From the NCBI GenBank assembly GCA_963662715.1, contig OY759724.1, positions 1,626,662-1,690,661 of the forward strand: a stretch of 64,000 nucleotides of DNA, given 5' to 3'. Positions 8,935 to 34,016 of this stretch are shown here, piece by piece (positions within the stretch are counted from its first letter, which is position 1; each line of letters begins with the position of its first letter). The notes beneath the pieces are model-generated. The model made no database searches and had not been told where the DNA came from. It saw only the letters and a program-made list of their open reading frames with translations. The position numbers and the translations under genes are program-made. This stretch comes from Candidatus Omnitrophota bacterium. Its GTDB lineage: Bacteria; Omnitrophota; Gorgyraeia; Zapsychrales; JANLHA01.

Positions 8935-8990
8935 TTGGTTCAGGAATTGCCCGGTCTTTAAACAATATAAATATAAAACAGGACAAAAGA

Positions 8991-9476
8991 ATGAAGATTT
9001 TTATTGCCGCAGATCACAGAGGATTTTCCCTTAAAGCTTCCCTGAAAAAGATATTGTCGGGGAAAGGCCATGAGGTTATTGACGAAGGTTGTTATGAGGA
9101 GGGGCTAACATGCGATTATCCCGAATTTTCGTATAAAGTTGCGACAGCGGTAAGCCGTACGTCTGATTCCAGAGGCATTTTGGTCTGTTTGACGGGGATC
9201 GGGCATACGATTGCTGCGAATAAAGTTCCCGGTGCTTATGCGGCTTTATGTTACAATAAGCAAGCGGCGTTTTTATCCCGCGCCCATAACAATGCGAATA
9301 TTCTGGTCTTGGGGGCGCAATTTATTCCGGAGACGGATTTGAACGATATCGTGACGACGTGGTTGGAGACGGATTTTCAGGGCGGGCGGCATCTGCGTCG
9401 AGTCGAAAAGATCCGGGATATTGAAAAGAATTTTTTAAAAGTTATTCCGGCTCAGGAAGAGTCTTCCCCTTCTTAA
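8991..9476 (+). CDS. rpiB: Ribose-5-phosphate isomerase B (RpiB/LacAB family)
   Basis: '[15 protein letters not shown]...' and '[24 protein letters not shown]'. Internal ATG at 8991. Confidence 0.85.
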
Positions 9477-9525
9477 GGGACAGGGGATTTTTTTGGGGAA
9501 AAGGGTTTATGTAAAGGGGACACGA

Positions 9526-19549: not shown

Positions 19550-20167
19550 GTGTCTCAAGAACCAGAATCCCAGCTAAATCAGATTTATTCGGATCCGGAT
19601 GTTTTGCTTATGCTTGAGGTCCAGAAAGGCCACCAGGCCCCTTTTGAGAGCCTGATGCGTAAGTATTATAAACGGATTTATAATTTTATTTACCGTTTTG
19701 TCGGACATCGACAGCTGGCCGAAGATTTGACACAGGATGTTTTTATCCGTGTGTATAAATCGGCGGATTCTTACCATCCCAAAGCAAAATTTCAAACCTG
19801 GATTTATACTATTGCTAAGAATTTGAGTCTTAATGAATTAAGAAAAAAGAGCTCTCGAAACAGTATTTCTTTAGAACAAGAAATTCCGACTTCCCGTGGG
19901 GCCGTGCTGCCCCAGGTCGAAGACCCTCGTGCGAAGAGTCTCTGGGAATCCATGGCGCAGGAAGAAAAACAGTCTGTTGTCAGGGAGGCCATTCAGAGTC
20001 TTCCTGAGAATCAGAGGATGGCTGTTATTTTGCGGAGATACGAAGATCTTTCTTACGAACAGATTGCTCAGACACTCCAATGTTCCGTGCCTGCCGTTAA
20101 GTCTCTTTTGAATCGGGCTAAAGAAGGGCTGAAAGGGAAGCTCAGGAATGTTATGGGAGATTATTGA
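19550..20167 (+). CDS. RNA polymerase sigma-70 factor, ECF subfamily
   Basis: Region 2 'YKRIYNFIYRFVGHRQLAEDLTQDVFIRVYK' and region 4 'LPENQRMAVILRRYEDLSYEQIAQTLQCSVPAVKSLLNRAKEGL'. GTG start. Confidence 0.9.
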   Translation: MSQEPESQLNQIYSDPDVLLMLEVQKGHQAPFESLMRKYYKRIYNFIYRFVGHRQLAEDLTQDVFIRVYKSADSYHPKAKFQTWIYTIAKNLSLNELRKKSSRNSISLEQEIPTSRGAVLPQVEDPRAKSLWESMAQEEKQSVVREAIQSLPENQRMAVILRRYEDLSYEQIAQTLQCSVPAVKSLLNRAKEGLKGKLRNVMGDY

Positions 20168-20233
20168 CGCGAGACAAATAAATCGCAACTTTTCCGCTTT
20201 TTTTGTGTTAAATATATAGAAGAGGATTTTATT

Positions 20234-20722
20234 ATGAAATGTCATGAAATCAAAGAACTTCTCCCGGCCTACAGCAATTCTGATGTCTCTCCAGAAAAAG
20301 CTATGGAAATAGGAGAGCATTTAAAGGTCTGCGAGGATTGCCTGCAGGAATATAATCTTATTGTTAAGAGCTGGGAGTCTTTGGACGTCTGGCCGGATAT
20401 TGAGCCGGAAGAAGGATATGTTTCAAGGTTCTGGACGCGTTTGTCTGCAGAACAGACCTGGAGAGAACGGGTTATGAGCGGAATGAAGAACCTGCTTGCA
20501 AAAAGAGCTCTTGTCCCGGCCTATGCCGGAACGCTCGTTGCGGTCCTTGTTGCTTTCTTGTATTTTCAGGTCCCTTTATCAAAAAACCGGCCTCCTGAAA
20601 TGATCATTGAAGAGGATGTCGATTTTGTTGAATCTCTGGAATTGACAGAGCAAATGGATATATTGCAGGAGATGGATTGGTTAGAGGATTTGGATGTTAT
20701 CGAAAAACTTGATGCTGTTTAA
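20234..20722 (+). CDS. Anti-sigma factor, zf-HC2 (ChrR/RsrA-like zinc-binding) type with one TM helix
   Basis: 'MKCHEIKELLPAY...HLKVCEDC' is an H-x3-C-x2-C zinc motif. TM helix 'ALVPAYAGTLVAVLVAFLYF'. Acidic C-terminus 'EQMDILQEMDWLEDLDVIEKLD'. Confidence 0.85.
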   Translation: MKCHEIKELLPAYSNSDVSPEKAMEIGEHLKVCEDCLQEYNLIVKSWESLDVWPDIEPEEGYVSRFWTRLSAEQTWRERVMSGMKNLLAKRALVPAYAGTLVAVLVAFLYFQVPLSKNRPPEMIIEEDVDFVESLELTEQMDILQEMDWLEDLDVIEKLDAV

Positions 20723-21002
20723 TCAGCAAAACAATTTTGTGCTAAAAGGAAGGGCTATTTTTGTGCTGAGCCTCTGTGCTTTTATCTTTATGGGGGGCCG
20801 GAATGGAGATTGCGGGAAAGAACAACAGAAGGATTCTTTGAAAAAGAAAACACAAGATGAGTCTGTTGTCGAATATATGGATATTTTAGATATATTGGAA
20901 ATTCTGGATGAGCGGGACATTGATTTCTTTCAGGATGATTTTTTTAGTTATCAGGAATTCGAGGGAGAGAAGGATGGAAAGGACAAAACAAAAAAGAAGT
21001 AG
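20694..21002 (+). CDS. Small acidic protein with signal peptide-like N-terminus; shares an 'MDIL...L..D' motif with the anti-sigma C-terminus
   Basis: 'AIFVLSLCAFIFMGG' hydrophobic segment, then 'VVEYMDILDILEILDERDIDFFQDDFF' and a Lys-rich tail. It overlaps both neighbours by 29 nt in different frames. The true start is uncertain. Confidence 0.4.
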   Translation: MLSKNLMLFNQQNNFVLKGRAIFVLSLCAFIFMGGRNGDCGKEQQKDSLKKKTQDESVVEYMDILDILEILDERDIDFFQDDFFSYQEFEGEKDGKDKTKKK

Positions 21003-21531
21003 GTGTTTTTCGTGTGTTTTGTTTGTAATTCTGATTTGTTTTATCGGGCGTCCGGCGGCTGCTCAAACAACCGGGCAGGCCCGTGAAATCCGTGACGAAA
21101 AACGGTTGTCGGAAAAATTCGAAAGGTGGCAACAGCTCAGCGAAAAAGAGAAAGCCCTGTTGCGCCGGCGTTTTGAAAAATGGCAGGCGATGTCCCCTGC
21201 GCGGAAAGCAAGAATTCAGGAAAGGTTTAAACGGTTTAAATCCCTGCCTATAGAGAAACAGCAGGAGCTTCGGAAGAACTGGCGGCGCTTTATGAACATG
21301 ACCGAGGGGCAGAAAAGAGAAATCAATGCGCGTTATGCCCGATGGAAGAAAATGACTCCGGAAGAACGCAGAAGACTAAGAAACCGGTTTTACCGGTTTA
21401 TGCAGATGTCCCCGGAGGAACGCAGGCAGCTGCAGCAAAAAAGAGAGCGGTGGCAGTCTCTTTCTCCGGAAGAACGGCAGAGAATACGTCAAAGAATACT
21501 TGAAAAAAGAAGACAGGCCCAGGAAATGTAA
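20974..21531 (+). CDS. DUF3106-type periplasmic repeat protein ('SPEER' repeats) typical of ECF sigma / anti-sigma loci
   Basis: Signal peptide 'MERTKQKRSRCFSCVLFVILICFIGRPAAA'. At least 4 repeats '(M/L)(S/T)PEERxxLxxRxxRW/F'. Internal ATG at 20974. Confidence 0.75.
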   Translation: MERTKQKRSRCFSCVLFVILICFIGRPAAAQTTGQAREIRDEKRLSEKFERWQQLSEKEKALLRRRFEKWQAMSPARKARIQERFKRFKSLPIEKQQELRKNWRRFMNMTEGQKREINARYARWKKMTPEERRRLRNRFYRFMQMSPEERRQLQQKRERWQSLSPEERQRIRQRILEKRRQAQEM

Positions 21532-21540
21532 TCATCTTAA

Positions 21541-21600
21541 GGGATCAGCGCCCTTTTTTATAACTCAAATAGAACCAGGACGCTGATCCCTTTCATTTTT
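21541..21600 (+). terminator. Rho-independent terminator-like inverted repeat GGGATCAGCG ... CGCTGATCCC followed by TTTCATTTTT
   Basis: Perfect 10-bp arms at 21541-50 and 21581-90, a 30-nt loop, then a T-run. It ends the sigma / anti-sigma / DUF3106 block. Confidence 0.55.
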
Positions 21601-21751
21601 CTGAATTGTCGGCCTTTTTATTGTACCCTCCTTTTTAAATATCATCTTCCAATAATTTACAGCTTTTTAAAAATCCAAATAAGTTCTGGCCTCTTGTTGT
21701 CGTTCAGTTTTTTTCGCCCTCTTTTTCTTGCCTCTTGACAATGGTGTATTA

Positions 21752-21773
21752 CTGTATTACACTTGTAATACAG
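21752..21773. promoter_or_regulatory. Perfect palindrome CTGTATTACA-ct-TGTAATACAG (candidate GntR/YtrA operator) overlapping a TTGACA -35 box at 21735-21740
   Basis: Read directly. It has the GT-N-AC core typical of GntR operators. It sits 30 nt upstream of the GntR start and contains a further half-site copy 'gtattac' at 21745-21751. Confidence 0.55.
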
Positions 21774-21802
21774 GTAGCATCAAAACAAGAGTAAAGAAAG
21801 CC

Positions 21803-22207
21803 ATGACAGCCAAAGCAAAATTTTATTTTAATATTTTAACAACTTCCGGAGTCCCGATCTACCGGCAGATCATTGATCAGGTGAAAACTCTTATTGCGGC
21901 CGGCCGGTTGTCGTCAGGGGAGTTCCTGCCTTCTGTTCGTCAGGTGGCGCAGGAGCTGGAAATAAATCCTATGACGGTTTCCAAAGCCTATTCTTTATTA
22001 GAGAAGGAAGGAGTTCTGGAGTTTGCCCGCGGGCAGGGCATGAGAGTGAAGGGAAAAACTATTCCTCAAAAAGATCTGAAACAGCGGGAAGAGGCGCTTA
22101 TTCCTTTATTAAAAGAGGTCATTATGCGGGCTTGTCAATTGTCCGTTCAGCCGGAAAAGGTTATCTTACTTATGGAACATTTGTGGAAGGAGCAGCGTCA
22201 TGAATAA
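21803..22207 (+). CDS. GntR family transcriptional regulator, short YtrA-like subfamily
   Basis: 'IYRQIIDQVKTLIAAGRLSSGEFLPSVRQVAQELEINPMTVSKAYSLLEKEGVLEFARGQGMRV' is a GntR wHTH. The short C-terminal domain is followed by an ABC ATPase, as in YtrA-type operons. Confidence 0.85.
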   Translation: MTAKAKFYFNILTTSGVPIYRQIIDQVKTLIAAGRLSSGEFLPSVRQVAQELEINPMTVSKAYSLLEKEGVLEFARGQGMRVKGKTIPQKDLKQREEALIPLLKEVIMRACQLSVQPEKVILLMEHLWKEQRHE

Positions 22208-23078
22208 TTTTGTGATAAACATGCAGGGCGTTACAAGGCGTTATCGATCTAAAACGGTTTTGCAAAATTTGTCTTTGCGCGTTCCCGAAGGGTCGGTGTT
22301 TGGCCTGTTGGGGAAAAACGGGGCGGGGAAGACGACCCTCATTAAATGTGTTTTGGGTTTATTGCATCCTCATGAGGGCCAGATTTCGGTCCTGGAAGAT
22401 CATCCCGGGGATTTCTCGAATCAAACTAAAGAAAAGATCGGCTATGTCCCTCAGTCAGACCGGATTTATCCCTGGTTAAATGTCAGGCAGCTTGTTGCTT
22501 ATACGGCTTCGTTTTATTTTCACTGGAATACAGGTTTGGTTGAACGGTTGCTGAAAGAGTGGGAGTTGGATGAAGAGGATAAAGTGGGTTTGCTGTCAGA
22601 AGGCCAGGCCCAAAAACTGGCCATCATCCTTGCCTTAGGACATGAGCCGAGTGTATTGATATTTGACGAACCCGTTGCCAGCCTGGATCCTGCCGCCCGC
22701 AGGAATTTCTTAAAGACCATTCTGGATATTGTCGCTGACCGGAAATGCACGATATTTTTCTCCACCCATATCACCTCAGACCTTGAACGGGTCGCCGACC
22801 GTGTCGCTTTGCTGAAAGACGGAAAAATTGATTTTTGCGGTGAGCTTGACGTGTTAAAAGAAGAAGTCAAAAGACTGCGGGTGGTGTCTTCTGTCCCGTT
22901 GTCCCGGGAATTCCAGCTTGACGGCCTTCTTCACTGTGAACTGTCAAAGTATGAGGCTATTTTGTCTGTGCGCGGCTTTCATCCGGATCTGAAAAACCAG
23001 ATAGAGAAAAAAATCGGAGCGAAAATAGAAGTCGAGGATCTGAATCTTGAAGAAATTTTTCTGGAGCTCCATTCATGA
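22200..23078 (+). CDS. ABC transporter ATP-binding protein
   Basis: Walker A 'GKNGAGKTTL', signature 'LSEGQAQKL', Walker B 'LIFDEP', H-loop 'THI'. Confidence 0.9.
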   Translation: MNNFVINMQGVTRRYRSKTVLQNLSLRVPEGSVFGLLGKNGAGKTTLIKCVLGLLHPHEGQISVLEDHPGDFSNQTKEKIGYVPQSDRIYPWLNVRQLVAYTASFYFHWNTGLVERLLKEWELDEEDKVGLLSEGQAQKLAIILALGHEPSVLIFDEPVASLDPAARRNFLKTILDIVADRKCTIFFSTHITSDLERVADRVALLKDGKIDFCGELDVLKEEVKRLRVVSSVPLSREFQLDGLLHCELSKYEAILSVRGFHPDLKNQIEKKIGAKIEVEDLNLEEIFLELHS

Positions 23079-24463
23079 GAAATAAATATTATCAGATTTT
23101 CAACCTTTATTATCAATACATCCCTTTCCGTATCTTGTCGGCGTGTTTAGTGGCCACAGCTTTGCTTTCAAGATTTTCCCTTAAGCAGAAATACTATTAT
23201 GTCGCCGATGATTTTTTCACCTTTTTTCTGGTTGTCAGTGTCTGGCTGGGTTTCACTTCCGGGGTGTTATTAAAGAGACAGATGGCGCATCCCCGGGCCG
23301 CACTGCTGCCGGATTACCGTATCCCCCATATCATTGTCCCTTATAGTTTTTTTGCCTTCTTTATCGCGGTTTACTGTTATTGGCTCAGCAGCCTTTACCC
23401 GCTTATTATCCTGGAGAAAGCAGCTGTGTGGTCGGTTTTTCTGTTAAGTGTTCTTATCATCAACCTGATTATCTGGGTCGGATATCTGTCCATTAGTTTG
23501 CTGGTCTATGTCTCGTATTTTCTTCTGCTCGTGATTTCCTGGCAGACGTTTAACCTGGTTATCCTCATTACCGAACAGGCGCATTGGCAGCTTGCCCTGG
23601 CTCTGGCGAGTGTGGCTTTGCTTCTGCTGCTCGCTTGGCGAATGACGGTCTTAAATGAGGACAAGTTTGAATACGGCTATATTATTTCCTGGCCGCATAA
23701 GGAATTCCTCCACAATCAAATCAAAGCCGGAGAACTTTATGTCCGGGCGATACATTTTATTAAAAGCCGGCTCGGGCTTAAGCCCCGCAGAGTTGCCGTT
23801 CCTCCTTATCCGAGAGAGGCGGCCCTTTGGCGGAGGGCGTACCATTGGCATTATTTGGATTTGGCTGAATTGAAAAGTATTTGGATTCTGCTTGTGGTTT
23901 TGACGCCGGTCTATGTTTACCGCATCCCTGGGATGTCTTTTTTTCATGACTTTTACAGGGATCCTTACAGTAATTTTTTGCTTTATGCCATTGCCCCTGT
24001 CCTGATCGTTTTATGCTCGAATTATCGTAACATGAGCACCTGGCCGCATGATCTTCTGAAACCGGTCCGAAAAAAAGACTTTATTAAAGAGCAGGGGGCG
24101 GGACTTTTGGCGGGGCTGGGGCTGTACTGGCTGTTGTTTGTGATGTACTTGGTCTTTATCCCGCATTGCGTGCTTCAACCCGCTGCCTTGTTGAGCAGCC
24201 GGTTCTGGGGATATTTGGCTTTGTCAGGAAGTTTTGCCTTCTTGACATTGTCCTGGGTCATTTTTATGAGCACTTATTCATCCCGGCCCTGGTTTGTCCT
24301 GGCTAACGGAAGCGTTCTTGTGGGGCTGGCGCAGTTGTTGTTTGTGGTGGCCGGGAAACAGCCTTTCATGATCAATATGTTGAATAGTGCTCTGTGTTGG
24401 GTAGGCATTTATTTATTTTTGAAATGGGGTTACCGGAAATGGTGTCAGGCTGAGACAGCCTAG
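23075..24463 (+). CDS. Polytopic integral membrane protein (putative permease partner of the ABC ATPase)
   Basis: 462 aa with >=10 hydrophobic helices. 4-nt overlap with the ATPase gene. No recognisable family motif. Confidence 0.6.
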   Translation: MRNKYYQIFNLYYQYIPFRILSACLVATALLSRFSLKQKYYYVADDFFTFFLVVSVWLGFTSGVLLKRQMAHPRAALLPDYRIPHIIVPYSFFAFFIAVYCYWLSSLYPLIILEKAAVWSVFLLSVLIINLIIWVGYLSISLLVYVSYFLLLVISWQTFNLVILITEQAHWQLALALASVALLLLLAWRMTVLNEDKFEYGYIISWPHKEFLHNQIKAGELYVRAIHFIKSRLGLKPRRVAVPPYPREAALWRRAYHWHYLDLAELKSIWILLVVLTPVYVYRIPGMSFFHDFYRDPYSNFLLYAIAPVLIVLCSNYRNMSTWPHDLLKPVRKKDFIKEQGAGLLAGLGLYWLLFVMYLVFIPHCVLQPAALLSSRFWGYLALSGSFAFLTLSWVIFMSTYSSRPWFVLANGSVLVGLAQLLFVVAGKQPFMINMLNSALCWVGIYLFLKWGYRKWCQAETA

Positions 24464-24474
24464 GAGGGTTTGAT

Positions 24475-25917
24475 ATGAAAGTCAAAATGATTTTACCCGC
24501 GTTGTCTGAAGCCAAGAGTATATACTGGCGGCCTTTGAAATATTCTTTGTTCCCGCCTTTGGGTTTAGCGACTTTAGCCGGTTTTCTTTCCGCTGAGGAT
24601 GATATCGAAATCCGGGATGAACATGTTGAAGATTTATTCCTGGATGACGATCCTGACCTCGTTGCGATCCAGGTTTATATTACAGCCGCCCACCGGGCTT
24701 ATGAAATAGCCGATCATTACTGCCGGAAAGGCGTTTACGTTGTTTTAGGCGGTTTACACGTAACCTCTCTGCCGCAGGAAGCCGCTCTTCATGCCGACAC
24801 GATTTTTTTAGGTCCGGGCGAAGATACCTGGCCGCAATTTTTGCATGATTTTAGGCATGCGCGTCCCCGCAAAATTTACTCATCAACCCATCGTTCCCTG
24901 ACCGGCATCCCGCCTTTGCGGCGGGATCTTATTAAACGGCATTTGTATCTGGTGCCTAATTCTTTGCTTGTGTCCCGGGGCTGCCCGCACAGATGTGATT
25001 TTTGTTATAAAGAATCTTTTTTCCAGGGGGGCAGATCTTTTTATACCCAGACGGTCGATGATGCGCTTCATGAGATCCGCCGTCTCCCGGGGAAGCATCT
25101 TTTTTTTCTTGATGACCATCTCTTCGCTGATGAACGCTTTGCCTTGTCGTTGTTTGACGGAATGAAAGGAATGAAACGGGTCTGGCAGGCTGCCGGGACA
25201 GTGGCTTCCGTATTAAGGCCTCGTTTAATTGAGAAAGCCGTTGATTGCGGATTGAAAAGCCTGTTTGTCGGGTTTGAAAGCGTTAGGTCGGATACCCTCG
25301 CGGCATACAATAAACAGCATAACAGCAGAAGCGATTATGATGATGCCATCAGAAAGCTGCATGATTTGGGTGTCATGATCAACGGGAGTTTTGTCTTTGG
25401 CTGGGATGAGGACGGCCCGGATGTTTTTGACCGGACGGTCGAATGGGCCATAAGTCACGGGATTGAAACAGCTACCTTTCATGTCCTGACGCCGTATCCC
25501 GGAACCGCGCTTTTTAAACGCTTATTATTTCAGAAACGTCTGCTAAAAAAGAATTGGGACCTGTATGATACCCGGCATGCGGTCTTTGCTCCGGCACAAA
25601 TGTCGGCTGAAGATTTGGAGAAAGGATATGGGAGGGCGTATCGTGATTTTTATAAGTGGGGATCAATCTTTCAGGGGGCGGGGAATCATGCCTCAGGAAA
25701 AGATGCTTTGCGGCACCTGGCTTATGCCGGGGCCTGGAAAAAGTGTGAGCCATTATGGAATTTTATTATCAAGATTCGGCAGATTCAGAAAATGCGTCCT
25801 TTCCTGGAAGCGGTCCTTTCCGGGGGGCGGCGGGAGGAAGGGCGGATTCTTCCCGCCGTAAAAGACAGGGGGGTGCTGCAAAAGGAACGGATGTCATTTA
25901 AAACCGCCGGACCGTGA
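24475..25917 (+). CDS. B12-binding domain / radical SAM protein
   Basis: The N-terminal B12-binding-like domain is followed by 'CPHRCDFCYK', a CxxxCxxC radical SAM cluster motif. Confidence 0.85.
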   Translation: MKVKMILPALSEAKSIYWRPLKYSLFPPLGLATLAGFLSAEDDIEIRDEHVEDLFLDDDPDLVAIQVYITAAHRAYEIADHYCRKGVYVVLGGLHVTSLPQEAALHADTIFLGPGEDTWPQFLHDFRHARPRKIYSSTHRSLTGIPPLRRDLIKRHLYLVPNSLLVSRGCPHRCDFCYKESFFQGGRSFYTQTVDDALHEIRRLPGKHLFFLDDHLFADERFALSLFDGMKGMKRVWQAAGTVASVLRPRLIEKAVDCGLKSLFVGFESVRSDTLAAYNKQHNSRSDYDDAIRKLHDLGVMINGSFVFGWDEDGPDVFDRTVEWAISHGIETATFHVLTPYPGTALFKRLLFQKRLLKKNWDLYDTRHAVFAPAQMSAEDLEKGYGRAYRDFYKWGSIFQGAGNHASGKDALRHLAYAGAWKKCEPLWNFIIKIRQIQKMRPFLEAVLSGGRREEGRILPAVKDRGVLQKERMSFKTAGP

Positions 25918-25985
25918 ATGTCCCAGCATATCCGTTGAGCGCTCAGGCGGGGTTCAGAACATCATAAAAGAAAGGAGGGAGGATT

Positions 25986-26195
25986 ATGACACCGGAAGCC
26001 ATCAGAAGTTTATGCAAAGCGGCATCTCTGGTTTCGGTTGTGGCAGGAGCATACGGAATGGTCTTGTGCGTGCCGTTTATTGCAAGCCCCCACGTGACAG
26101 TTATTGCGGCGGCCAGCCTGCCCTTTATTGCCGGAGCTGTTTTGATTGCCGGAGGATTGGTGAGCTACACGATGCTCATTCGCAAGGAAGCATGA
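25986..26195 (+). CDS. Small two-TM hydrophobic protein (69 aa)
   Basis: 'LVSVVAGAYGMVLCVPFIA...IAAASLPFIAGAVLIAGGLVSY'. Two hydrophobic helices. Confidence 0.45.
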   Translation: MTPEAIRSLCKAASLVSVVAGAYGMVLCVPFIASPHVTVIAAASLPFIAGAVLIAGGLVSYTMLIRKEA

Positions 26196-26207
26196 GTTTG
26201 ACCCTTA

Positions 26208-26221
26208 GGCGGCGCCGCCTA
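26208..26221. other. Perfect GC palindrome AGGCGGCGCCGCCT
   Basis: Read directly. 14-bp self-complementary element 13 nt after the small TM ORF stop. Confidence 0.3.
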
Positions 26222-26280
26222 TTATAAAAAGATGATATGCTTTTGCGATTGTGCCGCAGGCATAAAAAAGGACGCTCCTC

Positions 26281-27030
26281 ATGAGAAAGAGTCTTATCCC
26301 ATTGCTGCTTGTCGTAATGGTCTTTTATTCCTGTTCTTGCGAAGAAAGGCCTGGCAGAGAAGATCCTGTTGCTTTCCGAGATAACAAACTGACTTTCAAG
26401 CTGGAAAACGTTCCTCTAGCCGAGGAGCCTTTGGAAGAGACGGATTATGCAACAGTCATAAAGAACATTTCTTACGAATTGCTTGAGCCTCAAGACGGTC
26501 ATTTTATAACGGATGAGCAGATAGCCAAAGTTAAACTTGAAGCCAGCGGATTCAAAAGGAAAGAAATCATTTCTTCCCATAACCATCCTTTTATAAGTGC
26601 GCTGACATATTCATTCAATGATCATCGCCCGTTAATCCTCTCCCCGGATATGATATGGCTTTTGATTTGTCAGGGGTTCGGGGAACATGTTAATGCCAAC
26701 GCTGAAGAGCTAAGAGACAGATTTGTCGATCATCCCGGCCAAAAAACACTCGTTGTTAAAAGGCATGATTTTGTTAAAGGTCATGAGGCGAATCCCTGGC
26801 CCGAAGTTTTTCCGTTATTTTCAAAACAAATAAAGAAATACTCTAATAATGATTTGTATGACATCCTGGTTGCAAACTATTCTACAACCACGCAAGCCGA
26901 AAAAACCGCATATGAAATGACATTTATGTACACCAATAAATTTTATTTTGCCTATAGATTCGAAACCTGGTGCGGAATTCCGAGCATTACTTTAGAAGGG
27001 ACGAAAGAGGACTGGGAAAAGATTCTTTAA
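26281..27030 (+). CDS. Putative lipoprotein / secreted protein of unknown function
   Basis: Signal 'MRKSLIPLLLVVMVFYSCSC'. An open frame-2 stretch continues past the stop to 27224. Confidence 0.6.
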   Translation: MRKSLIPLLLVVMVFYSCSCEERPGREDPVAFRDNKLTFKLENVPLAEEPLEETDYATVIKNISYELLEPQDGHFITDEQIAKVKLEASGFKRKEIISSHNHPFISALTYSFNDHRPLILSPDMIWLLICQGFGEHVNANAEELRDRFVDHPGQKTLVVKRHDFVKGHEANPWPEVFPLFSKQIKKYSNNDLYDILVANYSTTTQAEKTAYEMTFMYTNKFYFAYRFETWCGIPSITLEGTKEDWEKIL

Positions 27031-27229
27031 AAGAAAGCTTGAGTTCGGGGATTTTCCGTCCGGCATATATATTGCACCCCTGGAATGGTGTTATTTGGGT
27101 GAGACTTTCGATATGAAATTAGTGGCGGGCTTTGTAGGCATGACCCAGGATAAAGATACCAAAGCCGTACGCCCGGAAATAAACTGGATCATATACGATG
27201 TTACTGATGTTTCGGAAAAATAGTGACCT

Positions 27230-28024
27230 ATGAAATCAAATTTGTCTCATAACGTATTGAAATTGACTCTTCTGTTTTCGGGCGTCTCTACTTTGGGCCT
27301 GTTTATAGCCATGGCGATACATGAATTGGGTCATATCATTGTTGTCCTTTATTACGGGGGGCGGGTGACAAATCTTCATTTGCAGCCGTTTTCCCGTTCT
27401 GTCGTATCGTATTCCGTCCCGGCATCAGCGTCACAGTTATGGATCGCCTCCGGGGGCATTGTTTTCAGCATGATCATGGGCGGACTCGCTTTTTTGCTCG
27501 CACGTAAAATACGGTCTCCATACGGGTTGCCGGTCATTATGACAGGAGTCGCGGCTTTCATCGGGAATGGTTTTTATTTTGTTTTTGGTGCAATCATGTA
27601 CGGCGGCTTCGGTGATCCGGCAAAGTTAATGGCTTCGGGGTGCCCGGCCTATGGCCTTGTGATTTGGGGCGGTGTCCTTTTTATTCTTGGCTGCCTAGCT
27701 TTCCTTGCGAATCTTCCTTTGCTCGGGATCGGTCCGGAAGATTCCTGGGGACGAAGATCTGTCATCTTTGCCGGAGGTATTGCGCCTTATTTGATATGCG
27801 TGATGGTTTATAACGCTGTTTTTGATGAGACGCGCATTCCGCATTATTTTACTTTTATTGTTGGAACTATTTTTATGCTGTTGGCCGGGGCTTTTATGAC
27901 CAGGTTTTTGTCTGAGCGTTTGAGATGGCTCCAAAGACCTGCTGTAAGAGTTTGTTGGAAGCATGCATGGTTTGCTGTATACTTAAGTGTGCTTGTGATT
28001 ACGATAGAGCTGGTTTCTTTTTAG
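27230..28024 (+). CDS. Membrane protein with intramembrane HExxH motif (putative M50/S2P-like or DUF3267-like zinc metalloprotease)
   Basis: 'LFIAMAIHELGHIIVVLYYGG' places HELGH inside a TM helix. 6-7 TM segments. Confidence 0.55.
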   Translation: MKSNLSHNVLKLTLLFSGVSTLGLFIAMAIHELGHIIVVLYYGGRVTNLHLQPFSRSVVSYSVPASASQLWIASGGIVFSMIMGGLAFLLARKIRSPYGLPVIMTGVAAFIGNGFYFVFGAIMYGGFGDPAKLMASGCPAYGLVIWGGVLFILGCLAFLANLPLLGIGPEDSWGRRSVIFAGGIAPYLICVMVYNAVFDETRIPHYFTFIVGTIFMLLAGAFMTRFLSERLRWLQRPAVRVCWKHAWFAVYLSVLVITIELVSF

Positions 28025-28106
28025 CGGAGCCTGCCGTAAAGCCGTCAAACTAAACGAAAGAAAACCGGATGACCGTGTTTATTTCATAATTTTTTAAAAG
28101 TGTTCT

Positions 28107-28817
28107 ATGCAGATTTTATTTTCATTTTTTCTGGCCGTATTGCCGGCTTTGCTTTTAGTCCGGTATTTTTACAAAGCTAATCCGGCCCCCAAAGCCCTGA
28201 TCATTAAGCTGTTTCTTCTGGGGATTATATATACTCTTCCGGTTTATATTTTAGAAGAGATTTTGGCCCGCTTTAATGTGTATACGGAAGGCTCTTTTAT
28301 CCTGTATTATTTTTTTGAAGCCTTTATCGTTGCCGGGCTGTGCGAAGAATACATCAAGTTAAGAGTCGTTAAGAAATACGGATATAATTCCCCGTATCTG
28401 CAGGGAGAAGGCGACGGGATCATCCTTACTGTTGTGGCCAGTATGGGTTTTGCCTGTATGGAAAATATTTTGTATGTTATCAATAATTCCTGGTATATGG
28501 CTTTAGCCCGGGGGTTTACGGCGGTTCCCATGCATGCGATTTGTTCCGGAGTCATGGGATATTATCTGGGGCTCGCCAAACGCGCCCGGATAGCCCAAGA
28601 ACCGCAGACAGAAAAATATCTTATTAATAAAGGATTATGGCAGGCCATTTTAATCCACGGGTTATATGACTTTTTCTTGTTCATTTCTCCTATCCTGGGT
28701 TCAGTTTTTGCGACATTCACCGTTCCCCTTATGCTTTGGTATTATTTTTCCTTGAAAAGAACAATTCATAATGCTGTAGAGGATAGACTGCGGTTTTTTA
28801 AGGAGGGACAGGCATGA
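28107..28817 (+). CDS. CPBP/PrsW-family intramembrane glutamic-type metalloprotease (CAAX-protease-like)
   Basis: Motif 1 'CEEYIKL' (EExxK), motif 2 'GFACMENIL' (FxxxE), motif 3 'IHGLYDFF' (HxxxD). Confidence 0.75.
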   Translation: MQILFSFFLAVLPALLLVRYFYKANPAPKALIIKLFLLGIIYTLPVYILEEILARFNVYTEGSFILYYFFEAFIVAGLCEEYIKLRVVKKYGYNSPYLQGEGDGIILTVVASMGFACMENILYVINNSWYMALARGFTAVPMHAICSGVMGYYLGLAKRARIAQEPQTEKYLINKGLWQAILIHGLYDFFLFISPILGSVFATFTVPLMLWYYFSLKRTIHNAVEDRLRFFKEGQA

Positions 28818-29260
28818 GTTTTATTTATGCTGTTTTTGCTTATCCCGCTGCGCAAATGGCGGCCTTTTTCTGGGGGGCAGAGCTTCAGTGGCTGAAAGGA
28901 GAGGAAATTCGGATATTGATCTCTCCGCAGCCTATTCAAGTCACAGCTTCCTGCAGCGGTTTTGGATTTTTTTCTTTATTTTATATTTATATTGTCTTTT
29001 ATGTGGTACGGTATTGTCAAAGATCCCGGATGTGGGCTGCGGTCCTGATTCCTTTGCCGGCCGTTTATTTAGCTACCGTTGTAACTAACGCAGCCAGGAT
29101 GATTTGCGCTTATCATATTGCCCGTGTCAGCGGGGCCTGGTTGCCGTCTTTTTTTCAGCCCATTATTCATATGGGGGTCGGGGTGGCTTTCTTTCTCGGT
29201 GTTTTTATCGTAAGCACTTTATTGTTGGAGAGAATATTGCCTTATGGAAGACAATCATAA
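28814..29260 (+). CDS. Exosortase/archaeosortase-family protein, minimal catalytic core (148 aa)
   Basis: 'IQVTASCSGFGFF' matches the exosortase catalytic 'aCSG' motif. 'VVTNAARMI' matches the N-x-x-R motif. An Arg lies upstream in 'GEEIRIL'. Its ATG overlaps the TGA stop of the upstream gene (ATGA). Confidence 0.65.
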   Translation: MSFIYAVFAYPAAQMAAFFWGAELQWLKGEEIRILISPQPIQVTASCSGFGFFSLFYIYIVFYVVRYCQRSRMWAAVLIPLPAVYLATVVTNAARMICAYHIARVSGAWLPSFFQPIIHMGVGVAFFLGVFIVSTLLLERILPYGRQS

Positions 29261-32200
29261 AATGACGATCCTGCCGGTCTCTGTGAAGAGCCGCATTCTT
29301 GTCTTTTGGGTTTTTATCCTGCCTCAATTTGTCCTTTTCCTTTTGAATGTTTTTTCGTTCTGGATTATCCGGGAGGACATGGCCGCTTCCCATCTTTACA
29401 AAGTCTTTACGATAGCCGGCTGTGAGATTTTTCTTCTGCTTATCATGTGCGTCCTGTGGATGTCCTGGAAGCGTGCGGGGCTAAATTCCATTCCCTGGAA
29501 ATGGAACTGGTTTTTTCTCCTGATGCATATGGCGTATCTCTGGTACGTGAGCTATGAGATTCCCGCCGTCATTCCTGCGGGAACCGAAGCCTGGATTCTT
29601 GACCGGGGCCAGGTTATTTTATCCCAGTATGCTTTCATGATGCCGGCTTTGTTTTATTCGGCCTTGCGCTTAGCGTGTTTTGAGACGCGTTTAACCCGGG
29701 GGGCGGATATCGGACGCAGCCTCCTGGTTGCGGTCGGCATGCCGATGCTCTGGTATACAGCTATGCTGGGGCTGTCAACCTTTTACCGCTGGACCTGGAT
29801 GTGGTTCCCGACGGCCATCGGAATGGTGTTCTTTGTCGGAAGCAGCGTCATCACACTCATAGCCCTTATCCGCCTAAGCGTTTTGATTTATAGCTGGTAT
29901 CAGGGCCGGGATGCCTGGACTCACAATACCGTTATTGCTCTGGTCGCTTTGGTTGGGCCTTTGGCCGGGTTGCTTTTAAACCGGAACATCCCTTTCCCGG
30001 CTGACTTTCAGTCAGAAATCATTTATGGGCTGGCCGTCGTTAACGGGCTTATCCTGCTTGTCCCTTCGATCTTTAGAATGAAATATCAGCGCGTACGGCT
30101 GTTTTTGCGTGCATGGGCGTATCCTTTTACCCTTTATTTCTTTCTCGTGTTTTTACCTTTTCTCCCTTTATCCCTGCTCGCCATTTGTGCCTTGGGATTG
30201 GGATTCCTTTTTTTGATCCCGGTGCTTTTGTTTTTACTTCATACGAAAATACTTATTGAAGATTATCAGTCCTGCGCGCAGCAAGGTAGCCGTATGACCG
30301 CTGTTGCCCTTATCTTGTCGGCATGCCTTGTTTTGCCCGGTGCTTTTGTCGCTGAGACGCTTTGCGATAAAACCGCCGTAGAGCAGGCTCTCGATTATGT
30401 CTACGCATCTGATTATGAACAACCTCAATGGTATCCCGGGTCTGCAAGAGCTGTTGAGCGGACTTTAATAAAAATGCGGCAGGCTAAAGACGGGGCCCAA
30501 TTGCCGTACCTTTCTGCGCTTTACAACCGGATTGTTTTTCACGGTATGGTTCTGCCTAATTCCAAAATGGAGTATATGTTCCGGCTTTTTACCGGAAAGT
30601 CTTTAAACGATGTTTATGAAAAATCGGCCGGCTGGCGCAGCCGTATCCGAGGGAGAGATGGTGCCATGTCCGCGGGCCGGCGCAGAAGGCCTGAACGGGA
30701 CCGGAATGTTGTTCTTTTTTCAACGACCAAGACCAGCCGGAATGAGGGGGTTTCAACCGTAACGAAAATGGTGTTTTATTTTATAAATATCGGTCATGAT
30801 AATGCGGCGGAATTTTTCAGGGAATGCACGCTTCCCCCGGGCGTTCTGATTACCGATTTTCGTTTGCAGCTTAATAACGAACTGGTGCCGGGGCAAATAT
30901 TCGAACAGAAAACGGCCACATGGGTTTATCATATGATCCGGGACTGGACCCGGCGGGATCCCGGCCTCATTGTCTATAAGTCTCCGCAAGTGTTTGAGCT
31001 CAGCATTTTTCCTTTTCGCACGAGAGAAACCCGCTATGCCGAAATTGAATTTACCTATCCGCGTGATGCGGCACCGGTCATCTATATCGGCAGAAAAGGG
31101 ATTGCTTTGCGTTCCCGGGATGAGGGCCCGCCCAGCCCGCCTGTCCCGTTAACGGGCCAGGACGCTTCAGGGAACAATTATTCGCTGGTTTTCCCCGAAA
31201 TGTTGGAGTCTCTGGCAAAGATTAAAAGAAAGCCTTATTTGCATTTTATTCTGGATTTTTCCCTGGGAGAGGATCCGTCCCAATATGCGCAACAGATGAT
31301 GGATGTTGCCGCTGAGTTCCCGGATATCCATAAGGGGAAAATCAGTGCGGCCAATTTTGAAGTTGAATCTTTGACCCGGGATTTTATAGATTTCAGAAAC
31401 AGCGATTTAATAAAACAACATCTGCAACAGGTCCGGCTCCCGTCCCGCGGGGCTCTGGAGCTTTCCAGAGTTTTTAAGCACGAATTGACGATGTATCAAT
31501 CCCGTCTTGAAAGCGAGGATTTTGCCTCATGGTCCGAGTATCCTGTCTTTGTTGTTTTATCGCAGAAAAAAGATAACGTCATATCCCCGGAAGACATGTC
31601 GTATTTTCAATTCCTGACTCCGGAAAATGACAGTTATTATATCAAAACGCCGGATCAGCCGGCGCAGAAACATCCGCTTTTCCGGGCGGTTCTAGACCCT
31701 TACCTGCCGGAAGATGTGGTTGTCTTCAGGAGAGGCCCTTATGTGTCATTCGCTCCCGGACCGAGATGGGAGAGATGGCAATGGCATGTTCTTATAAACC
31801 AGGGAAAGGGGAAGCAGCAGCCTTTGGAGGTTTATGATCCCAATCAAAAATATTTTGTCCCGATTTTATACGAAAGGATTCCCGGGGGCTCTTTTTACGG
31901 GCAAGCCCTGGGGCTGTACGTGAAGAATTATAAGGACATTCTGAACCCTTCTAAACTTAAGCGGTCGCTGCCGGCACTCGTGCAGCAGAGCAAGTCCTTG
32001 GGGGTTTTGATCCCGGCCACAGCTCATATTATTGTCGAACGCAGTTCCCAGTGGAAAACTCTTCAGTTGAGAGAATTTCAGCGGTTGCATAGTCAGCAGG
32101 GCCTGGAGTTTGAAGAGGACTTTGAAACACCTGCCCCGCCTTTCTGGCTGCTCGCGATAGCGTGCTTTTTGTGGCTCCGGAGCAGACGGGCGGGCGCAAA

Positions 32201-32270
32201 ACATCCCATGATACCCTTCCCGGTTAGCGATTGTTGTTCGTCCTCCACGAAGAAAGCTGAAAAAGAATAG
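29244..32270 (+). CDS. Large polytopic-membrane / VIT-like domain protein with C-terminal PEP-CTERM-like sorting element (putative exosortase target)
   Basis: 1008 aa. Residues ~1-370 hold >=10 TM helices. The soluble region carries 'FRLQLNNELVPGQIFEQKTATWVYHMIRDWTRRDPGLIVYKSPQVFELSIFPFRTRETRYAEIEFTYP'. The C-terminus is 'TPAPPFWLLAIACFLWLRSRRAGAK', a Pro-rich motif, TM helix and Arg cluster. Confidence 0.75.
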   Translation: MEDNHKMTILPVSVKSRILVFWVFILPQFVLFLLNVFSFWIIREDMAASHLYKVFTIAGCEIFLLLIMCVLWMSWKRAGLNSIPWKWNWFFLLMHMAYLWYVSYEIPAVIPAGTEAWILDRGQVILSQYAFMMPALFYSALRLACFETRLTRGADIGRSLLVAVGMPMLWYTAMLGLSTFYRWTWMWFPTAIGMVFFVGSSVITLIALIRLSVLIYSWYQGRDAWTHNTVIALVALVGPLAGLLLNRNIPFPADFQSEIIYGLAVVNGLILLVPSIFRMKYQRVRLFLRAWAYPFTLYFFLVFLPFLPLSLLAICALGLGFLFLIPVLLFLLHTKILIEDYQSCAQQGSRMTAVALILSACLVLPGAFVAETLCDKTAVEQALDYVYASDYEQPQWYPGSARAVERTLIKMRQAKDGAQLPYLSALYNRIVFHGMVLPNSKMEYMFRLFTGKSLNDVYEKSAGWRSRIRGRDGAMSAGRRRRPERDRNVVLFSTTKTSRNEGVSTVTKMVFYFINIGHDNAAEFFRECTLPPGVLITDFRLQLNNELVPGQIFEQKTATWVYHMIRDWTRRDPGLIVYKSPQVFELSIFPFRTRETRYAEIEFTYPRDAAPVIYIGRKGIALRSRDEGPPSPPVPLTGQDASGNNYSLVFPEMLESLAKIKRKPYLHFILDFSLGEDPSQYAQQMMDVAAEFPDIHKGKISAANFEVESLTRDFIDFRNSDLIKQHLQQVRLPSRGALELSRVFKHELTMYQSRLESEDFASWSEYPVFVVLSQKKDNVISPEDMSYFQFLTPENDSYYIKTPDQPAQKHPLFRAVLDPYLPEDVVVFRRGPYVSFAPGPRWERWQWHVLINQGKGKQQPLEVYDPNQKYFVPILYERIPGGSFYGQALGLYVKNYKDILNPSKLKRSLPALVQQSKSLGVLIPATAHIIVERSSQWKTLQLREFQRLHSQQGLEFEEDFETPAPPFWLLAIACFLWLRSRRAGAKHPMIPFPVSDCCSSSTKKAEKE

Positions 32271-32320
32271 CGTGTGGTTTTTCATAGAAAAGTGGTTTTA
32301 TTTCTGTTAAGATAAACGCC

Positions 32321-33091
32321 ATGAACAGATTATTTTTAATCCGCAAAATCATGTTCGTCGGATTTTGTCTGACGTTTTTGCTGGGTTTCTCGGATATTAA
32401 ATTGCAGGATATCGAAACAGCTGTGATTGAAAAAGATTATGAAACGGCCAGGAATCTTGCCCAGACATTCCTCGCCTCCAATCCCGGCCGCGCCCAGAAG
32501 AATGAAGCTTCTTATTATCTGGGGTTAAGTGAATTGTTTTTGGGTGAGCCGGAGAAAGCCAGACAGATATTTGTGAAGATTATTGAAAGTGACCCGGATG
32601 CCCCGCTGAAGGGGAAAGCCTATATCGGCGAAGTTGACGCTTACTTTTTTCTGGAGAAGTACGAGGTCGCTTTGCATAAAGCAGAGGCTTTGCTGAATAA
32701 ACGGGCGGGCCGGGGATTCTCGGGGTTAATCTATCTGAAAATGGCCCGTGCCCATCTGAAGCTTGGCCGTTGGGACGAGGCCCGGAAGTATTTAAATAAA
32801 ATTATCTCTTATGCCCCGGACAGTGTGGAAGCTCACCGGGCAAGGCAGCTTCTCCAGGAGCGGCAGTTTTTTTCCGTGCAGTGCGGTTCCTTCCTGCACC
32901 GTTCTCATGCCGAGAATCTGGTGGAAGAATTGAAAGGCCGGGGGGAATATGCCTATATCGTTGAGACCGTCGATAAAGACGGTACGGGATTTTACCGGGT
33001 GCGGGTCGGTCAATTGTCAACCCTTATTGAGGCCAAAAATTTAAAAAAGAAATTAGCTGATTTAGGTTATCCTGCCTTGATTTATCCTTAG
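32321..33091 (+). CDS. TPR-repeat protein with C-terminal SPOR (peptidoglycan-binding) domain
   Basis: N-terminal TM/signal, then TPR-like helices. The C-terminus 'FSVQCGSFLHRSHAENLVEELKGRGEYAYIVETVDKDGTGFYRVRVGQLSTLIEAKNLKKKLADLGYPALIY' is a SPOR fold signature. Confidence 0.75.
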   Translation: MNRLFLIRKIMFVGFCLTFLLGFSDIKLQDIETAVIEKDYETARNLAQTFLASNPGRAQKNEASYYLGLSELFLGEPEKARQIFVKIIESDPDAPLKGKAYIGEVDAYFFLEKYEVALHKAEALLNKRAGRGFSGLIYLKMARAHLKLGRWDEARKYLNKIISYAPDSVEAHRARQLLQERQFFSVQCGSFLHRSHAENLVEELKGRGEYAYIVETVDKDGTGFYRVRVGQLSTLIEAKNLKKKLADLGYPALIYP

Positions 33092-33092
33092 T

Positions 33093-34016
33093 ATGCATCA
33101 TAATAAAATTATTTTCATCGTCGGCCCGACAGCCGTCGGCAAAACAGAAGTGGCTTTTCGTTTGGCTCAGCAGATGCAGGCGGAAATTGTTTCCTGTGAC
33201 GCTATGCAGGTTTATCGGGAGGTTTCCATCGCCACGAACACCCCTTTGCCGGAGATGCTCCGCTCCGTGCCGCATCATTGTGTTCATGTTGTTGAGCCTT
33301 CCCGGGAATTTGATGTCGCGGCGTATAACGATATGGCGCTGCAGGCTGTCCGGGATATCTTTCAAAGACAGAAGACAGTGGTGATCACTGGCGGCAGCGG
33401 ATTGTATATGCAGGTTTTGCTGGACGGCATTTTTCAGGGAGCGCCCAAAGAACGCTATATCAGGGATGAGTTGTGGCAGAGATTTGAAGCAGAAGGCCGT
33501 GAAGCGCTTATCCGTGAATTAAAGGCCCGGGATCCCATGGCCGCTCAACGCATTCATCCTCATGATACCCGGAGGATTATCCGGGCCCTGGAGGTCTGTT
33601 TGGCGACGGATCAGCCTTTTTCCAAGCTGCAAAAGGAACGGCAAGGGCTTTGGGGAAAATATGAGATAAGTCTTTATGCCTTGACGCGGGAGCGGGAGGA
33701 CTTATATGATCGGATTAACCGGAGGGTTGATCAGATGTTTGAGCAAGGGCTTATGGAGGAGATCGGCCGTCTCCGGCAAAGGTCTTTGAGCCTTACGGCT
33801 CGGCGCATTATCGGTTTCAGGGAGGTTTCGGGGTGTTTGGATCATGAATATGATGAAAGCCGGGCCCGGTATCTTATGAAACTGCATACCCGGCATTATG
33901 CCAAAAGGCAGCTGACCTGGTTTAGAAAAGACAATCGTATTCAATGGATTTTCCTGCGGCGGGATGCGGGGGCGGCAGAGCCGCTGGCGGCCCTTGCCAA
34001 AGCGGAACATTTGTGA
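33093..34016 (+). CDS. miaA: tRNA dimethylallyltransferase (MiaA)
   Basis: P-loop 'IVGPTAVGKTEVAFRLA...EIVSCDAMQVYR'. Confidence 0.9.
   Translation: MHHNKIIFIVGPTAVGKTEVAFRLAQQMQAEIVSCDAMQVYREVSIATNTPLPEMLRSVPHHCVHVVEPSREFDVAAYNDMALQAVRDIFQRQKTVVITGGSGLYMQVLLDGIFQGAPKERYIRDELWQRFEAEGREALIRELKARDPMAAQRIHPHDTRRIIRALEVCLATDQPFSKLQKERQGLWGKYEISLYALTREREDLYDRINRRVDQMFEQGLMEEIGRLRQRSLSLTARRIIGFREVSGCLDHEYDESRARYLMKLHTRHYAKRQLTWFRKDNRIQWIFLRRDAGAAEPLAALAKAEHL

Follow-up and report, generated by a model that had tools for sequence, protein, structure and literature searches.

A short XrtK-type exosortase gene and its predicted MSEP-CTERM substrate gene in Candidatus Omnitrophota

A 64,000-nucleotide stretch of Candidatus Omnitrophota DNA (contig OY759724.1, positions 1,626,662 to 1,690,661; here called the window, with position 1 as its first letter) contains a small exosortase-like gene between the gene of a PrsW-family intramembrane protease and that of an MSEP-CTERM sorting-domain protein. 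A reading made from the sequence alone had described the catalytic core of an exosortase, reduced to 148 amino acids (aa) and translationally coupled to the upstream protease, which would either act in a complex with that protease or be a truncated remnant. The open reading frame (ORF) at 28814-29260 on the plus strand is real and encodes 148 aa. The following features were located in and beside it.

28107-28817, plus strand: PrsW-family intramembrane protease, 236 aa, full length, catalytic motifs intact (PF13367)
28800-28807, plus strand: Shine-Dalgarno sequence AAGGAGGG, 6 nucleotides (nt) 5' of the ATG at 28814
28814-28817, plus strand: ATGA, exosortase start codon over the PrsW stop codon, read from the sequence
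28814-29260, plus strand: XrtK-like mini-exosortase, 148 aa, without the first transmembrane (TM) helix of its family
28952-28960, plus strand: C47-S-G49, CxG motif with the predicted nucleophile Cys; C47 invariant in alignments of 134 and 125 sequences
29087-29098, plus strand: N92-A-A-R95, NxxR motif with the predicted catalytic Arg; N92 and R95 invariant
29168-29182, plus strand: H119-M-G-V-G123, HxxxG motif with the predicted catalytic His, from the family alignments
29244-29260, plus strand: 3' end of the exosortase gene and start of the MSEP-CTERM gene, a 17-nt overlap
29244-32270, plus strand: MSEP-CTERM sorting-domain protein, 1008 aa (TIGR04286)
32121-32189, plus strand: tripartite C-terminal signal of FETPAPP, the hydrophobic FWLLAIACFLWL and the basic RSRR, from a 36-member alignment

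The exosortase ATG lies over the TGA of the 236-aa ORF, as had been reported, and the two ORFs share 4 nt in different frames. The exosortase gene has its own ribosome-binding site, the strong Shine-Dalgarno sequence listed above; neither this site nor the 17-nt overlap with the MSEP-CTERM gene had been mentioned in the sequence-only reading. An in-frame TAA at 28799-28801, four codons 5' of the exosortase ATG, excludes a longer N-terminus. An N-terminus extended through an upstream start or a frameshift was accordingly rejected, the PrsW protein being complete against its profile as well. The ATGA overlap is unique to the window: in four related loci (L001 and L005-L007) the TAA of the PrsW gene is separated from the exosortase start codon by 15 nt that include an AAGGA site. 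A promoter and terminator scan of 21500-33200 showed no convincing terminator between the prsW, xrtK and MSEP genes and was uninformative; the PrsW gene is probably co-transcribed with the exosortase gene. The closest relatives of the PrsW, exosortase and MSEP-CTERM proteins all come from metagenome-assembled genomes of Candidatus Omnitrophota.

The 148-aa protein passes the exosortase/archaeosortase signature TIGR04178 (32.2 bits, cut-off 23), with residues 41-143 aligned to model positions 1-96 of 97. Its best family is XrtK (TIGR04287), which it matches with 38.2 bits over model positions 33-159 of 163. A word-index protein search with the 148-aa protein matched only the protein itself, and an exact-sequence contig look-up gave no match. 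An exhaustive HMMER search was needed to find relatives, and across 1.84 billion representatives it returned 189 of them at an expectation value (E) of at most 1e-3. Length statistics were taken from 149 of these, namely the best 150 matches minus the query itself. Among them the XrtK-like family has a median length of 176 aa, with most members at 160-200 aa, and no relative has the length of a protease fusion, apart from one match of 2368 aa that had no aligned stretch.

Proteins of the EpsH type contain eight or more TM helices (PMC1569441). The 148-aa protein has neither this number of helices nor the full-length domain match of a canonical EpsH/XrtA enzyme, and it gave no match of its own to the Pfam family Exosortase_EpsH (PF09721). 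Members of its family align to positions ~151-254 of 254 in PF09721 and to positions 166-259 of 261 in the XrtA model; the XrtD model has 486 positions. XrtK-type enzymes retain only the last ~100 positions of a canonical exosortase, which carry all invariant residues. Against the XrtK model the window protein has lost only positions 1-32, the first TM helix. The small size is the native state of the family. The description of the enzyme as reduced holds only in comparison with canonical 8-TM exosortases, whereas its own family is natively 140-200 aa long.

Six residues are invariant in the EpsH/exosortase family and form the motifs CxG, NxxR and HxxxG (PMC1569441). All six are present in the 148-aa protein, within its retained segment. 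In alignments of 134 and 125 relatives the residues of these motifs are invariant or at least 90% conserved; H119 and G123 occur in all 134 sequences of the larger alignment and are conserved to at least 90% in the other (A2). The strings EEIRIL (residues 30-35), SCSG (46-49) and TNAARM (91-96), from which the catalytic core had first been recognized, are present, and C47 is encoded by TGC at 28952-28954. The Arg of EEIRIL (R33), taken at first for a conserved residue, is not conserved; the conserved Arg in both alignments is R95 of the NxxR motif, and the HxxxG motif had been overlooked. The assignment as an exosortase catalytic core is upheld by the TIGR04178 match and the six invariant residues.

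An AlphaFold model of the 148-aa protein is compact and confident (predicted local distance difference test, pLDDT, 95.1; predicted template modelling score, pTM, 0.88), and the first helix of the family is not needed for it. It contains helices at 3-20, 50-65, 70-109 (kinked) and 112-141, in agreement with the roughly four hydrophobic helices counted before, and a three-stranded sheet at 23-43. A sequence search of the Protein Data Bank (PDB) with the family profile gave no match at E≤1, and a Foldseek comparison of the model with the PDB gave nothing meaningful (best E 0.9, TM-score below 0.3). The family has an acidic beta-loop before Cys47 and a K/R-rich loop at 66-72 as well as a K/R-rich C-tail, a charge distribution that fits a catalytic triad on the outer face of the membrane. 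Orthologues in five other loci keep the architecture of 143-148 aa at 41-50% identity to the query. The ratio of nonsynonymous to synonymous substitutions (dN/dS) of the exosortase gene is 0.16-0.40 over the orthologue pairs and 0.19-0.25 (about 0.2) for unsaturated pairs.

A typical family member has 20-45 additional N-terminal residues, which form a K/R-rich tail and a strongly hydrophobic helix. The query is without XrtK model positions 1-32 (~30 aa), which correspond to this first TM helix. The helix is also missing in the orthologues of L001 and L005-L007 (147 aa) and of L004 (143/151 aa), each of which has an in-frame stop 5-12 codons upstream. By comparison with the family, this Omnitrophota lineage has additionally lost the first TM helix. 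Among 81 XrtK genes of the compared loci the helix is present in 68, and seven full-length genes are without it, namely those of the six-locus clade that includes the window and a 140-aa form in L035 (Gammaproteobacteria); the remaining genes run off contig ends or match the profile in two pieces. A helix-less gene of 146 aa was also found in L089, an unrelated lineage, where it begins 10 nt downstream of queH, six codons after a stop, and is followed by the gene of a 945-aa VIT protein. Loss of the first helix has occurred in at least this one unrelated lineage, and probably in L035 too. The helix-less form is not a product of decay, since its architecture is kept despite 41-50% identity, at a dN/dS of 0.19-0.25 and with a confident predicted fold. 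A dependence of the helix loss on PrsW was considered and rejected, since L004, L089 and L035 have helix-less genes with no PrsW gene beside them; no PrsW remnant turned up in L004 by tblastn, where the best match (E 0.28) lay on the wrong strand.

The 1008-aa protein encoded downstream passes the equivalog model TIGR04286 (378 bits, cut-off 150). It consists of an N-terminal polytopic membrane domain, a VIT domain (weak match) and a C-terminal sorting signal, and many of its 186 homologues are labelled MSEP-CTERM in the source annotations. In the signal, T962-P-A-P965 aligns with M-S-E-P, with P965 nearly invariant, and RSRR is followed by a 26-aa tail. The motif reads RMSEP in Bacteroidota, VPEP or TPEP in bacteria of the Planctomycetota-Verrucomicrobiota-Chlamydiota (PVC) group, and F[DE]TPAP[PS] in Omnitrophota. 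The FETPAPP/RSRR signal is the only credible one of its type in the 64-kb window.

MSEP loci were collected in an alignment-based scan of one genome per species, in which 206 relatives were found and 80 loci kept. They span Omnitrophota, Verrucomicrobiota, Kiritimatiellia, Lentisphaerota, Planctomycetota, Gammaproteobacteria, Bacteroidota and others. For the pairing with the exosortase, all ORFs were searched with the family profiles in the 83 loci whose upstream sequence was long enough. An XrtK-family ORF lies directly upstream of the MSEP gene in 78 of the 83 loci and 1-3 kb upstream in three more; only in L021 and L034 (Chthoniobacterales) was no XrtK-family ORF found within 5 kb upstream. 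The commonest spacing among the compared loci is the 17-nt overlap that is also seen in the window. The conserved partner of the family is the downstream MSEP-CTERM protein and not the PrsW protease, and the 1008-aa protein is predicted to be the dedicated and sole substrate of the mini-exosortase. The pairing of XrtK with MSEP-CTERM is already contained in the NCBIfam models, and the Omnitrophota partners are already labelled MSEP-CTERM in the sources. What is new in the window is a member with three minor variations: the absence of the first helix, the TPAP motif and the PrsW neighbour.

The most conserved part of the MSEP-CTERM protein is its N-terminal polytopic membrane domain (~400 aa, 29244-30450), which may be a functional partner of the mini-exosortase and not a passive anchor. 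Within the stretch YFFLVFLPFLPLS of the MSEP protein, Y298, F300, F303-F306 and P308 are invariant, and L307 and L309 are nearly so. Two XrtK-family ORFs, at 4218-4970 of L054 and 4181-5017 of L058, have an insertion of ~55-80 aa between the half with the Cys and the half with NxxR and HxxxG, and their alignment to the profile falls into two separate parts. An apparent XrtK-MSEP fusion in L021 (an ORF of 1523 aa) was rejected as a spurious ORF extension in DNA of high G+C content, without an XrtK domain.

Homology, the conserved motifs, the conserved gene pair, purifying selection and the confidently predicted fold all agree that the 148-aa protein is most likely a functional stand-alone mini-exosortase of the XrtK type, with the downstream MSEP-CTERM protein as its dedicated substrate. 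Catalysis, substrate identity, cleavage site and topology we infer from the neighbouring genes and from other exosortase types, as no experimental study of XrtK/MSEP-CTERM was found. The enzyme would be a membrane-embedded cysteine protease/transpeptidase, with a predicted Cys47-Arg95-His119 triad near the outer face of the inner membrane. The triad would recognize the C-terminal signal of the substrate, that is, the TPAP motif at the membrane boundary, the hydrophobic helix and RSRR. Cleavage would take place at or near TPAP through a thioacyl enzyme intermediate on Cys47, and the new C-terminus would be released or passed to an acceptor, by analogy with ArtA/PGF-CTERM and XrtA/PEP-CTERM.

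Several points weigh against this reading. The XrtK score of the 148-aa protein lies below the NCBIfam cut-off (38.2 vs 55), and so do those of all non-Bacteroidota MSEP-adjacent homologues tested (24-44 bits). Among ten XrtK-family neighbours tested, the only ones to pass were the two from Bacteroidota, Hymenobacter and Flavobacterium (115 and 151 bits); the range of the non-Bacteroidota enzymes means that the sub-threshold score of the window protein is typical of its phyla. In the literature library that was searched, no relevant paper on exosortase K/XrtK or MSEP-CTERM came up. The signal in the window has TPAP in place of SEP or PEP, with Ala where the conserved Glu would be. The MSEP-CTERM protein would stay anchored by its N-terminal polytopic domain, which makes the purpose of a C-terminal sorting step puzzling. 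The helix loss poses a topology problem, too. From a parity argument, helix 3-20 should not span the whole membrane in the helix-bearing members. Without the first helix, as in the query, it would have to serve as the first TM segment, or else an N-tail of 46 residues would need translocation. Finally, PrsW may have a role in this particular clade.

Of the known systems, XrtK (TIGR04287)/MSEP-CTERM (TIGR04286) is the closest to the window. It is the best-scoring family and shares the short exosortase with Cys, NxxR and HxxxG motifs, encoded directly upstream of and overlapping a gene for an MSEP-CTERM protein of ~1000 aa, in an arrangement of one enzyme and one substrate. The window differs in its lower enzyme score and the absence of model positions 1-32, in the signal TPAP instead of MSEP, in a host from Omnitrophota instead of Bacteroidota, and in the PrsW gene upstream. 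Canonical EpsH/XrtA (PF09721, TIGR03109) and XrtD share the six invariant residues with the window enzyme, also in their order, and the matched segment is their C-terminal catalytic region, but they have at least eight TM helices and models of 254-486 positions, of which the window enzyme keeps the last ~100. They also serve many PEP-CTERM substrates and are found in exopolysaccharide (EPS) loci (PMC1569441), whereas the window enzyme has a single predicted substrate.

Other short exosortases offer a comparison in size. The XrtM model (TIGR04300, 150 positions) is equally small but represents another subfamily with other partners, and it matched only a Lentisphaerales family member, weakly. 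XrtF, which is counted as short by description, is required for surface colonisation and biofilm formation in Flavobacterium johnsoniae (PMC10936215), so short exosortases can be functional; XrtF and its associated protein differ from the window exosortase in subfamily and partner. The XrtN system (TIGR04477) was compared by its target only. Both have VIT-domain targets, and MSEP residues 226-397 resemble positions 61-232 of the VIT protein of the XrtN system, but the MSEP-CTERM protein scores 29 against TIGR04477, where the cut-off is 250.

The upstream protease had been called a CPBP protease. Its gene is indeed that of a membrane protease and is overlapped by the exosortase gene, but the protein matches PrsW (PF13367) with 108.9 bits (gathering cut-off 23.5) over profile positions 2-194 of 196, and NF033739 with 111.6 bits, below the equivalog cut-off of 225. 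No match to the Pfam CPBP family PF02517 was obtained even at E≤10, and CPBP is therefore wrong as a family assignment. A distant kinship with CPBP at the superfamily level is plausible. PrsW-family proteins are described as structurally similar to Rce1 (PMC9263693). The EExxK motif and the two His motifs (E80, E81, K84, H143 and H184) do not vary among 50 homologues. The AlphaFold model of the protease has a pLDDT of 94.3; its best fold matches were APH-1 of gamma-secretase and a 224-residue multipass translocon chain (TM-scores 0.54-0.58, E 0.2-0.6), with Rce1 not among the top matches, and a sequence search of the PDB gave no match.

Among the compared loci, the PrsW gene is next to XrtK only in the window, L001, L005, L006 and L007. 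These loci form a clade in which the MSEP proteins share at least 52% identity with that of the window, and the clade is syntenic across the whole neighbourhood, over more than 20 kb from an extracytoplasmic function (ECF) sigma factor to ClpB. The order is 1268-aa protein, ECF sigma factor, zf-HC2 anti-sigma factor, GntR, ATP-binding cassette (ABC) ATPase, 462-aa membrane protein, radical S-adenosylmethionine (SAM) protein, 69-aa protein, M50-like protein, PrsW, XrtK, MSEP, TPR/SPOR protein, MiaA, HflX and ClpB. Because of this general synteny, the adjacency of PrsW and XrtK carries little weight. About 70 further loci have the XrtK-MSEP pair without PrsW. The PrsW homologues at 73-78% identity are the XrtK-linked ones, and with a dN/dS of ~0.09 PrsW is far more conserved than XrtK or MSEP. 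The next tier of PrsW homologues (52-59% identity) adjoins nadA, a 4HBT thioesterase gene or feoB, with no exosortase nearby. PrsW is most likely a lineage-specific neighbour rather than a required exosortase subunit. The genes upstream of PrsW in the window are as follows.

19550-20167, plus strand: ECF sigma factor, conserved in L090
20234-20722, plus strand: zf-HC2 (RsiW-type) anti-sigma factor, conserved in L090
21728-22207, plus strand: GntR regulator, conserved upstream module of Omnitrophota clusters
22200-23078, plus strand: ABC ATPase, same module
23075-24463, plus strand: 462-aa membrane protein with no known domain, same module
24475-25917, plus strand: B12-binding radical SAM protein (PF02310 and PF04055), also in L001
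25986-26195, plus strand: 69-aa two-helix membrane protein whose homologues travel with XrtK/MSEP in Omnitrophota
27230-28024, plus strand: candidate M50-like membrane metalloprotease (HELGH), 264 aa, with weak PF13398 and PF02163 matches, both below cut-off

This leads to the question of what PrsW does at the locus. In Bacillus subtilis, PrsW cleaves the anti-sigma-W factor as its site-1 protease (PMC9263693). In the window an ECF sigma factor and a zf-HC2 anti-sigma factor are encoded 8 kb upstream of PrsW, on its strand, and directly upstream of PrsW is the gene of an HExxH membrane protein with weak M50/M50B similarity. PrsW is highly conserved, in the manner of a housekeeping protein, and stand-alone orthologue-like genes occur in other Omnitrophota. 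It is possible, if doubtful, that PrsW belongs to this other pathway, acting at site 1 and the M50-like protein in a site-2-like manner on the anti-sigma factor, and is a mere co-transcribed neighbour of the exosortase. The M50-like matches, however, are below the Pfam cut-offs, and in L004 the M50-like gene is present but PrsW is absent. The 8 kb between the anti-sigma gene and PrsW also include what seems to be a separate operon headed by GntR, and the link between the PrsW, M50-like and anti-sigma proteins would be one of gene context.

A helix-less exosortase that works only together with PrsW, which may supply the missing membrane scaffolding or a second cleavage, would be the equivalent of known exosortase-protease fusions, as the sequence-only reading had proposed. 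Those fusions, of EpsH with a CAAX prenyl protease (Haft 2006), correspond to the type later named XrtE. Like the window genes, they pair an exosortase with a multi-pass membrane protease that belongs to the Rce1-like group in the broad sense. They differ in that the window has two genes in two frames and a protease of the PrsW family (PF13367), not of CPBP (PF02517), and in that the PrsW association of the window type is confined to one small clade. The ATGA overlap in the window, the PrsW-XrtK order kept in L001, L005, L006 and L007, and the restriction of PrsW adjacency to helix-less XrtK genes in the genome set would fit such a two-protease complex, as would the existence of EpsH-CAAX-protease fusion proteins (PMC1569441), the structural similarity to Rce1 described for PrsW-family proteins (PMC9263693) and the APH-1-like best fold matches.

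The complex is nevertheless improbable. The window and the four loci represent one narrow, wholly syntenic clade, and of the five only the window shows the overlap, the others having a 15-nt spacer between the PrsW stop and the exosortase start. Helix-less genes occur without PrsW in L004, where no PrsW remnant is left, and in L089 and L035; the ~70 XrtK-MSEP loci without PrsW and the unrelated contexts of the nearest other PrsW homologues point the same way. PrsW (72-78% identity, dN/dS 0.09) evolves much more slowly than XrtK (47-50%, 0.2) or MSEP (52-53%), so that the pair is unlike co-evolving partners. No PrsW-XrtK fusion occurs among the best 150 of the 189 family representatives, and the partner in the known fusions is the PF02517 CPBP domain, which this PrsW does not match. 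No better a prospect is a scenario in which the helix was lost along with the recruitment of PrsW, and perhaps of the M50-like protein, into a two- or three-protease machine for MSEP processing, as a split, non-CPBP counterpart of the fusions. In a milder version, the form of 143-148 aa may be the minimal autonomous catalytic unit of an exosortase.

The remaining alternatives concern the integrity of the gene. The protein is shorter than canonical exosortases (261 and 486 positions in the XrtA and XrtD models) and ~30 aa below its own family, and its score is below the XrtK cut-off, all of which would be expected of an N-terminally truncated remnant of a full-length exosortase. Such a pseudogene is rejected as very improbable, given the six invariant residues, the architecture kept in six loci at a dN/dS of 0.16-0.40 (~0.2), the compact predicted fold with a pLDDT of 95, the strong Shine-Dalgarno sequence of its own, the natively short family and the preserved overlap with the substrate gene. 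A lack of essential N-terminal residues, which had been named as the mark of a pseudogene, does not apply here, because all family-invariant residues, in all three motifs, lie within the retained segment and no essential N-terminal ones are known. That an artefact of sequencing or a frameshift split a single PrsW-exosortase gene (28107-28817 plus 28814-29260), as the 4-nt overlap in different frames might suggest, has next to no probability: the stop, 15-nt spacer with ribosome-binding site and start in four independent assemblies rule out a split fusion gene, PrsW spans its profile and ends in a normal cytoplasmic tail, and no relative of fusion length occurs among the best 150 of the 189 representatives.

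The supposedly reduced exosortase is thus a normal member of the catalogued XrtK/MSEP-CTERM system, neither a relic nor evidently dependent on a protease. The system reaches beyond Bacteroidota to Omnitrophota, Verrucomicrobiota, Kiritimatiellia, Lentisphaerota, Planctomycetota and Gammaproteobacteria, and in the non-Bacteroidota groups the curated XrtK model misses the enzyme although the partner model fires. The helix-less forms of 143-148 aa are the shortest members seen with all six invariant residues and are predicted to fold confidently. As no solved structure resembles the family, they could suit a first exosortase structure or work in vitro. The arrangement of one enzyme and one substrate with overlapping genes would offer a clean test of exosortase chemistry, and a genuine PrsW-XrtK processing complex, if it exists, would raise the interest of the finding.

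Some further observations were made in the neighbourhood. The HELGH protein of ~260 aa is present in the window, L001 and L004-L007, the same six-locus clade that has the helix-less XrtK, and the helix-less state correlates more tightly with the M50-like gene than with PrsW. Homologues of the 69-aa protein were found in L001, L002, L004-L007, L009, L011, L013, L014 and L017. Parts of the upstream module accompany XrtK/MSEP in the window, L002, L004, L009, L011, L013, L014 and L017, sometimes with the radical SAM protein; an ORF scan across all loci was made for the ~460-aa and 69-aa proteins only, and GntR and the ABC ATPase were seen in the window, L001/L090, L002 and L004.

The sigma/anti-sigma pair is followed on the same strand by the gene of a DUF3106 protein (19550-21531 for the three), 8 kb upstream of PrsW; in L090 the pair is followed by a 189-aa ORF without a recorded Pfam match. 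An ORF of 1266 aa at 15650-19450 has no Pfam match at E≤0.001 and has a counterpart of 1268 aa at the same position in L090. A DUF4419 ORF at 26281-27030 covers only profile positions 1-146 of 303, the N-terminal half. No DUF4419 gene was called at the equivalent position of L001/L090, where the 69-aa gene is followed by the M50-like gene, and the ORF looks like an inserted gene fragment or pseudogene. In L086, from another bacterium, the gene of a 700-aa VIT/VWA protein is followed directly by a rhomboid-family gene (8187-10705), 2.5 kb from a stand-alone PrsW homologue; these two may form a different C-terminal sorting pair.

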